Of a stretch of 64,000 nt of DNA, positions 19,272-27,200 are shown in pieces. The DNA lies in assembly GCA_029865345.1 (NCBI GenBank), contig JAOUHD010000001.1, positions 10,488 through 74,487 on the forward strand. The letters are read 5' to 3'. Positions within the stretch are counted from its first letter, which is position 1. Each line of letters starts with the position of its first letter. The stretch is from Nitrospira sp. Lineage in GTDB: Bacteria; Nitrospirota; Nitrospiria; Nitrospirales; Nitrospiraceae. A program made the translations under genes and the position numbers. The notes below the pieces were generated by a model. It had not been told where the DNA came from, did not search any database, and saw only the letters and a program-made list of their open reading frames with translations.

Positions 19272-20477
<1,206 letters not shown>

Positions 20478-20558
20478 CGAAGCAAGTGGACAGGGAGTAA
20501 GTCAACGCGAGAGTGCGTGTTGGCTGCGATCTTGTCGGTTTGTATCGAGGAGAAAGAG

Positions 20559-20708
20559 ATGCGTGAAATCATTAGCATGGCTTGTACGCTCTGCAAGCAG
20601 CGGAATTACTCGACCATGAAAAACAAGAAGAACGATCCGGATCGGTTGGAGCGAAGCAAGTTTTGTAAGTTTTGCCGCAAGCACGTGCCTCATAAAGAGG
20701 TGAAATAG
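20559..20708 (+). CDS. rpmG: 50S ribosomal protein L33 (Zn-binding CxxC...CxxC form)
   Basis: [45 protein letters not shown]; ATG 20559 behind GAGGAG. Confidence 0.96.
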
Positions 20709-20789
20709 GCCGAGGCGAGAGGGATGATGGAATCGTTCGGGGTGGAGTGCCTCGCCGATTGGCTGATGCCTCAGACCTTGCGTTCGAGT

Positions 20790-20864
20790 AGGGGCATGGT
20801 GTCAATGGTAGCACATCGGTCTCCAAAACCGAGAGTCTAGGTTCAAATCCTAGTGCCCCTGCCA
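20790..20864 (+). tRNA. tRNA-Trp (CCA)
   Basis: AGGGGCA/TGCCCCT-G-CCA; anticodon arm TCGGT-CT-CCA-AA-ACCGA; canonical rpmG-tRNA-Trp-secE position. Confidence 0.95.
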
Positions 20865-21055
20865 AGTCTCGTGTACACGATCCGGAGGGCTGTCGGAATT
20901 GAGCTCGATGTGTGGTGAGCCCTGTAAGTTTTTTGTGGGTAATAGATAGGAGTGGATTGCAGCATCAATTGGCCTTGCAATCGGAGCTGGCAGATTGGGC
21001 GTGATGGGTGTGAGTCAGTTATTCGGATTGACGTGATTAGGCAACGGAGTCACAG

Positions 21056-21250
21056 ATGTTTAAGCGCATGACAGAGACGATTCGACTGTTCGTGACGGAC
21101 GTGCGGGCAGAGCTAAAAAAGGTTTCCTTTCCGAGTCGCGCGGAAACCATCGGGTCAACGACGGTGGTGATCGTGTTTTGTATTATAATGTCTCTGTACT
21201 TATCCGTCATTGACTCATTCCTTTCATGGTTGGTTGCGAAATTCATCTAA
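21056..21250 (+). CDS. secE: Preprotein translocase subunit SecE
   Basis: 'F..DVRAELKKVSFPSR.E....T.VVIVF' with single TM; synteny. Confidence 0.95.
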   Translation: MFKRMTETIRLFVTDVRAELKKVSFPSRAETIGSTTVVIVFCIIMSLYLSVIDSFLSWLVAKFI

Positions 21251-21313
21251 ATCTGGCGAGAAGAGGAATTTGGGGAAGTTGGCGGTAATTCATCGAAGGC
21301 ATGAGGGTGGTGC

Positions 21314-21850
21314 ATGACAAAGAACTGGTACGTCATTCATACGTACGCGGGTTTTGAGGGGCGAGTGAAGACCAGCCTCATGGAGCGTGCCAATCAAATG
21401 GGGCTTGTTGAAAAGCTCGGGCAGGTGCTCGTTCCGACAGAGGATGTCATTGAAATTAAGGACGGGAAGCGACGGACTTCTCGGCGAAAGTTCTATCCGG
21501 GCTACGTCCTTGTGGAGTTGGAGTCTCCGTTGGGGGATAACACCGTCCAGATGATCAAGGAGACGCCAAAAGTGACTGGATTCGTTGGGGGCGGCGCGGT
21601 GCCGACACCTCTGACCAGTGATGAGGTGGAGGCCTTGCTCAAGCAGGTCGATGCGGGTCAAGCCGAGCCTCGGGAGCAGGTCAAGTTCATTAAGAGCGAT
21701 AACGTTCGCATTATCGATGGGCCTTTCCTTGGGTTTAATGGGGTGGTTGAGGAGGTCGATCAGGATCATAGTCGGGTGAAGGTGATGGTGAGCATTTTTG
21801 GTCGGTCGACCCCTGTGGAATTGGGCTTTTTGCAGGTTGAACGGATTTAA
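21314..21850 (+). CDS. nusG: Transcription termination/antitermination factor NusG
   Basis: WYVIHTYAGFE, FYPGYVLVE, KOW 'VRIIDGPF.GFNG', SIFGRSTPVEL. Confidence 0.98.
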   Translation: MTKNWYVIHTYAGFEGRVKTSLMERANQMGLVEKLGQVLVPTEDVIEIKDGKRRTSRRKFYPGYVLVELESPLGDNTVQMIKETPKVTGFVGGGAVPTPLTSDEVEALLKQVDAGQAEPREQVKFIKSDNVRIIDGPFLGFNGVVEEVDQDHSRVKVMVSIFGRSTPVELGFLQVERI

Positions 21851-21928
21851 GCCGATCGGTCGATGTCGGTCTTCAGTCGTGTGAGGGCTGAAGGTTGAGT
21901 GTCGATCGCGAAGGAGAAAGAGAGCGAC

Positions 21929-22354
21929 ATGGCGAAAGAAGTTTCGGCACAGATCAAGTTGCAAATTCCGGCTGGCAAGGCCAATCCGGCTCCTCCTGTC
22001 GGTCCCTCCTTGGGACAACATGGGGTCAATATTATGGAGTTTTGTAAGCAGTTCAATGCCAAGACCCAGAAGGACGGGGATAGTATTATCCCTGTCATCA
22101 TTACGGTCTACAAGGACCGTACCTTTAGCTTTATCATGAAGACTCCCCCGGCGTCTGACCTCCTCAAGAAGGCCGCTGGGATTATCAAGGGATCTGGTGT
22201 GCCGCAGAAAGATAAAGTAGGGAAAATCACCAGGCAACAGCTGGACGAAATTGCTCGGAAGAAGATGGCCGATCTGAATGCAGCTGATGTGGAGGGGGCG
22301 ACGAAAATCATCGAAGGTACTGCCCGTAGTATGGGTGTCGTTATTCAAGGCTAA
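21929..22354 (+). CDS. rplK: 50S ribosomal protein L11
   Basis: [32 protein letters not shown]; ATG 21929. Confidence 0.98.
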
Positions 22355-22380
22355 TGCCAAGATCGAAGGAGCGTCTGGTC

Positions 22381-23073
22381 ATGGGAAAGAAAATGAATGC
22401 GGCGATCAAAAATCTTGAGCCGCGTGTCTATGGGTTGCGCGAGGCCGTTGAAGCCGTGAAACGATCAGCCTATGCGAAGTTTGACGAATCGGTTGATCTT
22501 GCGCTGAGGCTGGGAATCGATCCGAAGCGCTCGGATCAGCTGGTTCGAGGGACGGCGTCGCTTCCTCACGGCACAGGGAAAAAGGTTCGCGTCTTGGTAT
22601 TTGCCAAGGGTGAAAAGGAGCAGGAGGCGCGACAAGCCGGGGCTGACTATGTTGGGGCTGACGACTTGATGGAGAAAGTCAAGGGCGGATGGATGGAGTT
22701 CGATTGCGCGATTTCCACGCCGGATCTTATGGCCTCGGTCGGGAAGCTCGGTAAAGTGCTCGGACCTCGCGGATTGATGCCGAACCCTAAGACCGGCACC
22801 GTGACCTTCGAAGTTGGGAAAGCGGTCGCTGATATTCGGAAAGGGCGTGTAGAGTTCAAGGTTGAGAAAGCCGGTATCGTGCATGTGCCGGTCGGAAAAG
22901 TGTCCTTCGATACTGCGAAGCTGTACGACAATGCCTCGGCCATCATTGAATCCGTCATCAAGGCAAAGCCTGCCTCCTGTAAGGGGCGTTATCTCAAGAG
23001 TGCCACGATTGCGAGCACGATGGGGCCTGGTGTGACATTGGATACCGTTACGCTGACCAAACAGTGGAGTTGA
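22381..23073 (+). CDS. rplA: 50S ribosomal protein L1
   Basis: [36 protein letters not shown]. Confidence 0.98.
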
Positions 23074-23159
23074 GACACGCGTTCAGCGTGAATCGTTCCT
23101 CGCGATTCGCTGGACGGATGATATTGGGCGGATAACGAATAGCGACCAGAGAGGGAGCG

Positions 23160-24095
23160 ATGAAGAAGGAAGAGAAAGTTACGGCAGTGGCGGAGTTGAC
23201 CGAAAAATTCGGTCGCGCCCGGCTGGCTATCCTGACGGAATGCGTCGGACTTCCGGTCAATCAGGTCACCGAGTTGCGCAAGCAGCTCCGCGGGGCAAAG
23301 GCAGAATATCGAATCGTGAAGAATACGCTTGCGGCGCGTGCCGCCGAAGGGACGGACTTGGCCGGACTCACGGTTCATCTCAAGGGACCGACCGGAGTCG
23401 TCATCGGGTACGACGATCCGGTGTTGCCGACCAAGGTGTTGAAGGACTTCATCGGTGCTGAAAAGCGGGACCAGAAGATTCGCATCACGGCCGGGGTGCT
23501 GGAAGGCAAGATTCTCCAGCCGGCTGAACTGGCAGCCGTTGCGAAACTGCCGAAGAAGGAAGTGCTGATTGCGATGTTGCTGTCGGCCATGCAGGGGCCG
23601 ATTCGTGGAGTCGTCTATACGTTGAGTGCGGTCTTGTCAAAGTTTGTACGAGTCATTGCAGCCATTCAGGATAAACGGAAAGGAGAAGGGGACATGCCAG
23701 CTACAGAGGGAAAGTTATCACAAGAGGAATTGATTAAGGCGATCGAAGGAATGAGCGTGCTCGACCTGGCCGAATTAGTGAAAGGGTTAGAGACGCGGTT
23801 TGGTGTGACAGCGGCGGCTCCGGTTGCTATGGCAGCGGCGCCGGCTGCAGGTGGTGGGGCGGCGGCTCCTGCTGAAGAGCAGACGGCATTCGACGTCATT
23901 CTCGCGTCGGTACCGGCGGACAAGAAGATCCAAATCATCAAGGTGGTTCGCGAGTTGACGAGTCTCGGTTTGAAGGAAGCCAAGGACCTTGTAGAGGGTG
24001 CACCGAAGCCAGTCAAGACTGGGGTGGCTAAGGAAGAAGCCGACACGATGAAGAAGAAGCTCGAAGAAAGCGGTGCCAAGGTCGAAGTCAAGTAA
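23160..24095 (+). CDS. rplJ-rplL: In-frame fusion of 50S ribosomal proteins L10 (codons 1-~173) and L7/L12 (from Met179)
   Basis: L10 motifs ([31 protein letters not shown]) run without a stop into L12 motifs ([60 protein letters not shown]). Confidence 0.93.
23681..23696 (+). promoter_or_regulatory. Internal ribosome-binding site AGGAG-N8-ATG for L7/L12 inside the fused ORF
   Basis: AGGAG 23681-23685, ATG 23694-23696 in frame; would yield a 133-aa L12. Confidence 0.75.
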
Positions 24096-24220
24096 GGAAG
24101 CGAGTTCGTCATAGTTGCGGCTGTTCTGGTGTTCGCCGAAGGCGGAGGTCTCTCTATGTTACGGGAATCTGTCGTCAGCGGTGACTGCTGTTCACCGCCA
24201 ACCAGCGTGGAGGAGTAGGC

Positions 24221-27200
24221 ATGTCCGAAACGACTCTGCAGGAGTTCGTCGAGCGGAAAGATTTTTCTCGCATTCGAACCAATATCGATATTCCGGATCT
24301 GATTGAAATACAGAAGCGCTCCTACGAAGAGTTTTTGCAGTTTGAGGTCGAATCGGAGCGCCGGAAGGATCATGGATTGCAGGCGGCCTTGGCCAGCGTG
24401 TTTCCGATTCCAGATTATAACAACACGGCCGTGCTCGAGTTTTCGAGTTATACCTTAGGGACGCCAAAGTACGACGAGCGAGAATGTCTTGAGCAGGGTA
24501 TGACCTACGCGGTTCCGTTGAAGCTGCGTGTCCGTCTGGTGGTGTTAGATAAAGAAGATAAGGGTCCGCGCAAGAAAGTGCTCGATGTACGCGAGCAAGA
24601 AGTCTATGTCGGTGAATTGCCGCTCATGACCGAGCGCGGGACATTTATCGTCAACGGGACCGAGCGCGTCGTCGTCAGTCAGCTGCACCGGTCGCCGGGC
24701 GCGTCGTTTACGCATGATAAGGGCAGGACTCATGCCAGCGGCAAGGTGTTGTATTCGGCCCGCATTATTCCGTATCGGGGCTCATGGCTCGATTTCGAGT
24801 TTGATGCCAGGGATATTCTTTATGTGCGGATCGATCGTCGTCGGAAAATGCCGACTACTATTCTGTTGAAGGCCTTCGGCTTTTCGAGCGACGACTTGCT
24901 GAAGATGTACTACCCTGTCGAAGAAATTCGCGTGTCCCAGGGGAAGATGTTCCGCAAGCTGGATCCAGAAATCCACCATGGACTTCGCTGTTCCGCTGAA
25001 GTGACGGATAAGAGTGGTAAAGAGATCTTGGTACGAGAGGGGGCCAGGCTGACGAAGGGGATGATTGCCAAGCTGAAGGCTGCTGGAGTGAAGGAGATTC
25101 CCTTGTTGCCTGCGGAGTTGGTGGGTCGTGCCACCCTTACGGAATTGGTTGACTCGAAGAAGAGCGTGTTGGCGGAGAAAAATCAGCGATTGACTGCCGA
25201 GATCGTGGAGCAGATCACTGAAAGCGATGTTGAGGAATTCAAGGTCATTTATCTGGATATGGCAACTGCTACGCCGGTCATTCTTGATACCTTGTTGATG
25301 GAGAAGATCGGGTCAAAAGAAGAAGCGATGGTCGAAATATACCGTCGCCTCCGTCCCGGTGAGACACCGTCGGTGGATACAGCCAGAGCCTTATTCGACA
25401 ATCTATTTCTGAATTCCAAGCGCTATGATTTGTCTCCGGTCGGTCGGCTCAAGCTCAATAAGAAGCTCGGTTTGGACTTACCGCTCGAGCAGCGTACCTT
25501 GACCGCACAGGACATCGTGGAAGTCGTCCGCTATATCGTCAATCTGAAGATCGGCAAAGGGGAAATCGACGATATTGATCACTTGGGGAATCGCCGGGTG
25601 CGATCCGTCGGTGAACTCTTGGAAAATCAATTCCGACTGGGCTTGGTGCGGATGGAGCGGAGCATCAAAGAGCGTATGAATCTTCTCGATATGGAAACGG
25701 TGCTACCGCACGACTTGATCAATGCTAAGCCGGTCGTCGCGGCCGTCAAGGAGTTTTTCAGCAGCAGCCAGCTGTCTCAATTTATGGATCAGACGAACCC
25801 CCTGGCTGAAATCACACATAAACGGCGTCTATCTGCTCTTGGCCCAGGAGGACTCACGAGGGAACGGGCTGGGTTCGAAGTTCGAGACGTGCATCCGTCT
25901 CACTACAGCCGTATTTGCCCGATTGAGACACCGGAAGGTCCTAATATCGGCTTGATTACATCGCTGGCCACTTATGCACGGATCAACCAGTTCGGATTCA
26001 TTGAGGCACCATATCGGAAGGTCGTCAAGGGACGTGTAACTGATGAGATTGAGTTTCTCTCGGCGATCGAGGGCGATAAATACATCATCGCCCAAGCCAA
26101 CTCAAAATTGGATGGGTCGTCCAAGCTGGTATCGGAAACCGTCTCGTGTCGTCACGGTGGAGACTTTGTTCTGGCCGCCCCGGATAAGATTGAGTACATG
26201 GACGTGTCGCCAAAGCAAGTGGTGAGCGTGGCGACCGCGCTCGTGCCGTTCTTGGAGCATGACGACGCCAATCGTGCACTGATGGGTTCCAATATGCAGC
26301 GCCAGGCGGTTCCGTTGGTCACATCGGAGGCTCCTCTGGTGGGGACCGGGATGGAAGCGGTGGTCGCGCGAGATTCTGGGTATGTTATCCAGGCTCGTCG
26401 GGCCGGGGTCGTGGAGAGCGTCGATGCTACCCGCATCGTCGTGCGGGCCGATTCGAAGGATTCGAAGGATGGGAAGGATGGGAAGAAGGGGAAGGATTCC
26501 GGGCTGGACGTCTATGACTTGATCAAGTTTCAGCGATCGAACCAAAATACCTGTATTACTCAGACGCCAGTGGTTCGGCTTGGCCAGCCGGTTAAGAAGG
26601 GGCAGGTGCTTGGAGATGGACCGGCCATTGATCATGGCGAGCTCGCGTTGGGCAAGAATGTCCTTGTGGCGTTCATGCCCTGGGGTGGGTACAACTTCGA
26701 GGACGCCATATTGCTGAGTGAAAAACTGGTCCGCGAAGACGCCTTCACGTCGATCCATATCGAAGAGTTCGAGGTGGAAGCGCGGGATACCAAGCTGGGG
26801 AAGGAAGATGTCACGCGCGATATTCCCAATGTCGGAGAAGAGGCGCTGAGAAATTTGGACGAGAGCGGGATTATCCGGATCGGTGCCGAAGTAAAGCCTG
26901 GCGATATTTTGGTCGGAAAGGTGACGCCGAAAGGGGAAACCCAGCTGACCCCGGAAGAGAAACTGCTCCGTGCGATCTTTGGTGAGAAGGCCGGCGATGT
27001 GAAGGATACATCGTTGACCGTGCCTCCTGGAGTGGAAGGTATCGTAGTCGACGTCAAGATTTTCTCTCGCAAAGGACTCGACAAAGATGAGCGTTCAAAG
27101 AGCATCGAGGCTGACGATCAGATAAAGTTGCAACGTGATCACCATGAAGAGCTACGGATCATTGATGAGGAAAAAACGAAAAAGATTCGCAAGCTCTTGC

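Follow-up and report, generated by a model that had tools for sequence, protein, structure and literature searches.

The ribosomal stalk proteins uL10 and bL12 are encoded in a single open reading frame with a conserved internal bL12 start signal throughout the order Nitrospirales

The genes for the two proteins of the ribosomal stalk, rplJ (uL10) and rplL (bL12), form one uninterrupted reading frame in the 64,000-nucleotide stretch of Nitrospira sp. DNA analyzed here (the window), and wherever a genome of the order Nitrospirales could be read at this locus, its frame was open as well. The initial annotation had described a fused ORF at this locus, and both its coordinates and its reading proved exact on re-translation: a single 311-codon ORF occupies 23160..24095 on the + strand, with the TAA at 24093-24095 as its only stop, and residues 1-178 correspond to uL10 and residues 179-311 to bL12, without any stop codon in between. 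The junction reads GCC ATT CAG GAT AAA CGG AAA GGA GAA GGG GAC ATG CCA. Pfam assigned Ribosomal_L10 (PF00466) to residues 1-97 (E 1.7e-27), Ribosomal_L12_N (PF16320) to residues 188-234 (E 7e-18) and Ribosomal_L12 (PF00542) to residues 244-311 (E 1.8e-28), each far above threshold. The fusion lies in the gene cluster tuf-rpmG-secE-nusG-rplKA-rplJL-rpoBC, and its calculated mass is 32.9 kDa (19.2 kDa for uL10, residues 1-178, and 13.6-13.7 kDa for bL12, residues 179-311). That the uL10-bL12 ORF is real we regard as practically certain. From the sequence comparisons described below, it is probable that a uL10-bL12 chain is made, that five further copies of bL12 are supplied by internal initiation, and that the chain is uncleaved in the ribosome. 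A covalent chain accompanied by free bL12 from an internal ribosome binding site had already been suggested from the window, and it is the best-supported reading here: the frame is open, there is no separate rplL, and the Shine-Dalgarno sequence (SD), the ATG and the unstructured mRNA around them have all been kept. The features of the locus are collected in Table 1.

Table 1. Features of the fused rplJ-rplL locus, with positions in the window
Feature	Position	Strand	Basis
rplJ translation initiation region	23138..23159	+	SD-like GAGAGGGAG, ending 2 nt before the ATG; -8.2 kcal/mol with the anti-SD
uL10 globular rRNA-binding domain, residues 1-132	23160..23555	+	PF00466; AF2 pLDDT 74-85; Foldseek TM (target) ~0.9 to uL10 chains
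uL10 helix alpha8, residues 133-173, predicted docking site for bL12 N-terminal-domain dimers	23556..23678	+	Alignment to 1zav_A; AF2 helices 133-145 and 152-173
Junction codons AAA GGA GAA GGG GAC (K174-D178)	23679..23693	+	uL10 C-terminal tail plus SD and 8-nt spacer of the bL12 start; no stop
Internal ATG (Met179), predicted start of free bL12	23694..23696	+	No variation among 111 distinct ORFs of four families
bL12 N-terminal tail (179-187) and dimerisation/uL10-binding domain (188-214)	23694..23801	+	PF16320; coil 174-187, helices 188-196 and 200-214
bL12 flexible Ala/Pro/Gly hinge, residues 215-243	23802..23888	+	AF2 coil, pLDDT <50; sequence
bL12 C-terminal factor-binding domain (244-311) and only stop (TAA 24093-24095)	23889..24095	+	PF00542; 1ctf TM (target) 0.95

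The source genome of the window is a metagenome-assembled genome (MAG) of 227 contigs. A search for the read-through in related genomes had been proposed as a check, and it returned an open frame, rather than separate genes, in all 41 relatives: one full-length match per genome, spanning residues 1-311 and free of internal stops. Of these genomes, 24 belong to the same genus and 16 to three further families within Nitrospirales, and six are single-contig. Across 110 loci (97 distinct ORFs) an internal stop was never seen and the internal ATG was invariant. Among the 80 related Nitrospira loci are that of the closed N. moscoviensis NSP M-1 genome (NZ_CP011801.1) and those of the isolates NS4, LAS72 and BLG_1. 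The junction is open in the closed genome of N. defluvii as it is in that of N. moscoviensis, where the tryptic peptide spanning the junction is the same as in the window. With a 60-aa probe for the junction, matches were obtained in 280 of 301 Nitrospirales genomes and in all 41 genera, and none of the 150 probe matches listed had a stop at the junction. Among the 20 genomes listed without a probe match, three break at contig ends, and 17 gave no L10 or L12 match at all; since one of these 17 is a single-contig, 99%-complete assembly, the sequence has probably been masked in them rather than being biologically absent. Among all readable genomes examined, we found no member of Nitrospirales with a stop at the junction. 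As a separate observation, contig ends in Nitrospirales MAGs often interrupt the rplJL ORF (five examples were noted), and in very many assemblies rplJL lies on contigs of ~15-16 kb, at ~1-3 kb or 10-12 kb from an end, which suggests that a recurrent assembly breakpoint flanks the rplJL cluster.

Beyond the order the arrangement is different. In a sample of 201 genomes from the phylum, the frame was open in every member of the order; two families of sister orders within the same class had L10 and L12 as separate genes in different frames, and the other Nitrospirota classes showed one to three in-frame stops or separate genes. Translation of the outgroup loci revealed the rplJ stop followed by a spacer of 60-150 nt before rplL; in one sister-order genome, for example, L10 ends in AEAG and a stop, followed by ~110 nt and then by AGAAGGAGATGTGAA-ATG. 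This two-cistron layout was seen in no readable genome of the order, where codons 1-311 are free of in-frame stops. Seven Nitrospirota genomes outside the order seemed to have L10 and L12 in one large frame, but on translation they proved to contain in-frame stops and spacers, and were discarded as fusions. In GTDB, Nitrospirales consists of four families (Nitrospiraceae, UBA8639, NS-4 and UBA2166), with JACQCE01 and JACQBZ01 as sister orders (PMC12342949). This fits the four fused families (f1-f4) and the two unfused sister families found here, of which only f1 was matched by name, to Nitrospiraceae. The fusion is ancient, with a single origin at the base of Nitrospirales. Both the rplJ stop and the rplJ-rplL spacer were lost, so that the end of uL10 now runs directly, and in frame, into the ATG of rplL.

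The peptide encoded at the junction varies among the families. Conservation of the KGEGD linker, another of the checks proposed for the window, holds in part: KGEG(D/E) is kept in f1 and f2, but the deep families f3 and f4, which are also fused, have other peptides there, namely KEDS in f3 (AAG GAG GAT TCC ATG, K-E-D-S-M) and KGTGE in f4 (AAA GGA ACG GGA GAG ATG, K-G-T-G-E-M), with an SD still encoded in each. Since the linker peptide differs (KGEGD, KEDS, KGTGE) and a GGAG/GAGG core is always present, the conserved signal is one of the RNA and not of the peptide. The codons point the same way. Glycine codons of the linker end in A or G in 188 of 189 cases, compared with 47.8% (~48%) over the remainder of these ORFs; since GGA and GGG replace each other freely, these sites do mutate and yet stay purine.

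In the window, the SD of the internal start was placed by the initial annotation at AGGAG, followed by an 8-nt spacer and ATG, within 23681-23696, and all of these positions were borne out: AGGAG lies at 23681-23685 (AAGGAG at 23680-23685) and the ATG at 23694-23696. The predicted energy of this SD is -9.0 kcal/mol at position -8, against -8.2 at position -2 for rplJ, and only 3.6% of in-frame 22-nt windows within these ORFs reach -9.0 kcal/mol. The internal rplL SD is stronger than that of rplJ itself in all four families (rplL/rplJ, in kcal/mol: f1, -9.8/-8.4; f2, -9.2/-7.3; f3, -12.2/-9.2; f4, -7.2/-6.4), although in f4 its value is moderate (-7.2 kcal/mol), which counts against internal initiation there. 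The canonical anti-SD motif GGATCACCTCCTT at the 3' end of 16S rRNA was present in one to three copies in five of six closed Nitrospirales genomes, and the controls gave no matches. The mRNA from -30 to +20 around the internal ATG ranks, in the median, among the least-structured 1.4% of in-frame windows, and falls within the least-structured 10% in 95% of 44 ORFs. The sequence signals of internal initiation, an SD, a start codon and an accessible mRNA region, were all found at this site, and internal initiation very likely yields free bL12.

No other source of bL12 was identified. A tblastn search with both halves against the 227 contigs of the window's own genome returned no second L10 or L12 (the next best hits had E 0.02 or worse), and each closed genome of the order gave a single match, and thus no separate rplL. 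With no second rplL, all bL12 must come from the fused ORF. Under the preferred reading, every ribosome that starts at the rplJ ATG would read on, so that uL10 would be born as a 32.9-kDa uL10-bL12 chain, and other ribosomes would start at the internal SD and ATG and produce an excess of free 13.7-kDa bL12. Being stronger and better spaced than the rplJ SD, the internal SD would favour this second start over that of rplJ.

The two halves retain what is needed to build a stalk of known type. Besides its PF00466 domain, the uL10 half has an alpha8 with predicted bL12-dimer segments (by sequence alignment). Its alignment with T. maritima L10 (1zav_A) is gap-free as far as residue 178 of 180, and alignments to the shorter L10 of E. 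coli and B. subtilis end near residue 158. In 1zav_A, T. maritima L10 is crystallised with three L12 N-domain dimers; as alpha8 of the Nitrospira uL10 aligns without gaps to the L10 of these T. maritima L10-L12NTD structures (1zav/1zaw/1zax), it is of the three-dimer type and should, by this alignment, hold three dimers, that is, six bL12 N-domains, one of them tethered and five free. The bL12 half, 63% identical to T. maritima L12 (with the alignment to 1dd3 beginning at query residue 189), contains the N-terminal dimerisation domain, the Ala-rich hinge and the C-terminal factor-binding domain. An AF2 model of the monomer (pLDDT 65) has the L10 globular domain, helices at 133-145 and 152-173 and a coil at 174-187, followed in the bL12 part by helices at 188-196 and 200-214, a hinge coil at 215-243 and the C-domain at 244-310. 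The monomer model did not confidently dock the tethered N-domain on alpha8, and pLDDT was below 50 for residues 146-189. Neither sequence search nor Foldseek found a PDB chain that covers both halves, Foldseek returning separate halves only. From the end of alpha8 to the first bL12 helix the tether measures ~14 residues (174-187), which by simple geometry should be long enough to reach the last alpha8 site. Of the six bL12 N-domains on the stalk, one would therefore be held through this coil and five would be free, and should the chain remain intact in the ribosome, a factor-recruiting arm would be built into the stalk base itself.

Given that the chain is made, we think it likely that it persists uncleaved. 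The alternative is that the fusion is made and then cut near the junction, so that the mature ribosome would carry an ordinary non-covalent uL10(bL12)6 stalk and the fusion would serve synthesis and assembly only. The sequence data are compatible with cleavage throughout; the junction falls within the predicted 14-residue coil and would be accessible to a protease, and processing of ribosomal proteins has precedents. Ub-eS31 and Ub-eL40 are processed in eukaryotes, and L27 is cut by Prp in Firmicutes. However, the junction peptide differs from family to family (KGEGD-M, KEDS-M and KGTGE-M), the linkers of independent fusions in other phyla are unrelated, and the tuf-rpmG-secE-nusG-rplKA-rplJL-rpoBC cluster contains no protease gene. 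A junction peptide that varies in this way offers no conserved cleavage motif, which argues against a dedicated protease, and we consider cleavage unlikely.

We give very little credence to the possibility that the 311-aa fusion is the sole product, with uL10 and bL12 in a 1:1 ratio and a stalk that is strongly reduced or built in some other way. A single ORF is annotated, and the bL12 half shows no additional constraint at the codon level: divergence at 4-fold sites is 0.557 in the bL12 half and 0.492 in the uL10 half, so bL12 is not the more constrained of the two, and its synonymous sites give no codon-level evidence of higher bL12 translation. But a 1:1 product could not occupy the three full dimer sites that alpha8 retains, and without initiation the SD, the invariant ATG, the purine-only synonymous sites and the open mRNA would have no reason to persist.

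Equally improbable is a recoding event, either a programmed frameshift to an out-of-frame stop or a stop-independent release, that would produce free uL10 without a tethered bL12. Many f1 sequences do contain GAT AAA, in which a shift to the -1 frame exposes a TAA located 22 nt upstream of the ATG, and A-rich runs (AAA AAG AAA, for example) occur in some relatives. Slippery heptamers (X XXY YYZ) were nevertheless found at the junction in just 2 of 127 ORFs, the window has AAA CGG AAA, which is not slippery, and no out-of-frame stop was found to be conserved across the four families. In the absence of a stop, a slippery site or a conserved out-of-frame stop, ribosomes that start at 23160 must finish at 24095. 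The junction could acquire a stop by any of several single-base changes (AAA>TAA, GGA>TGA or GAA>TAA), the first of which would create the common TAAGGAG layout, and none of them was seen in ~300 species. Because 4-fold sites are near saturation (~0.5) even within the Nitrospira sample and these routes to a stop have never been taken, we infer that selection keeps the junction frame open. The remaining alternative, a stop codon missed through a sequencing or assembly error, was raised in the initial annotation as a single-base error and might be entertained for a MAG of 227 contigs, but it is untenable, its probability being negligible, since more than 100 independent assemblies from four families, closed isolate genomes among them, share this open junction.

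To our knowledge, the bacterial L7/L12 stalk has always been described as a non-covalent uL10(bL12)4-8 complex, and none of the stalk papers found mentions a fused form. The fusion itself has left a trace in the databases. The N. defluvii ortholog (CBK41052.1; UniRef100_D8PCU3), which is 81% identical and has the same junction KKGEGDM, was deposited in GenBank as [quoted passage not shown] and appears in UniRef as "Multifunctional fusion protein"; the bare fusion had thus already been noticed at annotation, in 2010. Elsewhere the protein is entered as L10, as L7/L12 or as hypothetical. We found no discussion of a natural L10-L12 fusion in the full-text literature searched, to which neither the N. 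defluvii genome paper of 2010 nor that of Davydov et al. (2013) belonged. As far as we could find, what was known is the fusion name in one record; the conservation across the order, the internal start, the selection and the mechanism were not met with in the literature.

Fusions of this kind are not restricted to Nitrospirales. A library of representatives at 50% identity contained some 20 more clusters of full-length fusions (33-48% identity), each a single ORF of ~300-320 aa with no stop and a G/E-rich patch one to three residues before the internal Met. Those that could be named belong to Armatimonadota, Chloroflexota/Dehalococcoidia and Bipolaricaulia, and most clusters are small and uncultured. 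At the DNA level, two fusions from outside Nitrospirales lacked a stop and had SDs of -10.3 and -9.3 kcal/mol before the internal ATG. These fusions share the design of those in Nitrospirales, but their linkers are unrelated, and since the sister orders of Nitrospirales are unfused, the fusions of other phyla have separate origins. The design is therefore recurrent, and among the cases found Nitrospirales is the large clade with cultured strains and closed genomes. Four long candidate "fusions" from the library (P0159, P0188, P0200 and P0207) had Arg/Pro-rich linkers that look out of frame, and were rejected as probable artefacts. The same library also holds four proteins with four to seven tandem bL12 C-terminal domains and no L12 N-domain (P0126, P0142, P0152 and P0172, of 593, 953, 322 and 1056 aa), one of which is also joined to LRV/HEAT repeats.

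With the canonical rplJ-rplL operon the fused locus shares orthologous, complete domains, the gene order rplK-rplA-rplJ-rplL-rpoB, and a bL12 that has its own SD and ATG. It differs from the canonical uL10(bL12)4-6 stalk of E. coli and T. maritima, which is non-covalent, in that the stop and the spacer are missing and one bL12 is synthesised joined to the uL10 C-terminus. In-frame internal initiation with two products is familiar from E. coli, in the IF2 isoforms of infB, in clpB, and in the long and short forms of cheA. These genes resemble the Nitrospirales ORF in having one frame, an internal SD and start, and a full-length plus a C-terminal product. Their short form is a truncated isoform, whereas that of Nitrospirales is a whole separate ribosomal protein, needed in about five-fold excess.

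A second parallel is offered by archaea and eukaryotes, where the C-terminal extension of P0 (uL10) ends in the same factor-binding tail as P1/P2. The P0 stalk base would be alike in principle, by analogy, in that the base protein carries one factor-recruiting element besides the bound dimers. The two extensions are non-homologous: that of P0 is a short acidic peptide on a long linker, and that of Nitrospirales is a complete bL12. No acidic tail of the P0-type P-protein kind was found in the Nitrospira uL10, whose extension is, by Pfam, a complete bL12. A broader proposal, which we advance tentatively as one that may or may not hold, is that Nitrospirales would have no free uL10, and that every ribosome would carry the uncleaved chain, maintained by selection ever since the order arose. 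The bacterial stalk would then have converged on the P0 design both in Nitrospirales and, separately, in a few other phyla; the tethered copy would nucleate or stabilise uL10, otherwise prone to degradation, while it is assembled co-translationally, and would fix one of the six bL12 positions in cis. In E. coli, uL10 is degraded when in excess over L7/L12 (Petersen 1990, as cited in PMC13001810). It may be speculated that the tethered N-domain protects uL10, or that it nucleates assembly of the stalk.

A natural covalent stalk would be a ready-made experiment on whether a tethered bL12 works in factor recruitment. It bears as well on how stoichiometry is set when two genes share a frame, and on whether linkage to bL12 protects uL10 during assembly. 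Nitrospirales are ecologically important, as they include the main nitrite oxidisers and the comammox bacteria, and the cultured strains of the clade make the 32.9-kDa chain, the junction peptide and the internal start directly testable. There is also a consequence for annotation: pipelines give the protein inconsistent names and miss free bL12, which affects marker-gene and proteome analyses of Nitrospira.

Upstream of the fused ORF, the rplA-rplJ spacer (23074-23159) measures 86 nt, and both its length and its sequence vary among the Nitrospira loci compared. No Rfam match to an L10 leader was obtained in 20400-24400, and no conserved fold was found in the rplA-rplJ spacer; autoregulation of rplJ, if any, thus differs from that of E. 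coli and B. subtilis. The starts of two neighbouring genes may also deserve revision. The longest rplA ORF begins at ATG 22354, where it overlaps the rplK stop (TAATG) with nearly no SD (-3.7 kcal/mol), and the ATG at 22381, with a good SD (-9.1 at position -6), is the likelier start (window positions 22354-22383). For rplK, the listed start is GTG 21899, but an ATG at 21929, located just after AAGGAGAAAGAGAG (-9.3 kcal/mol), agrees better with the N-terminus usual for uL11 (21899-21931). Finally, a tRNA gene lies at 20790-20861, between rpmG and secE (Rfam RF00005, 61.4 bits).
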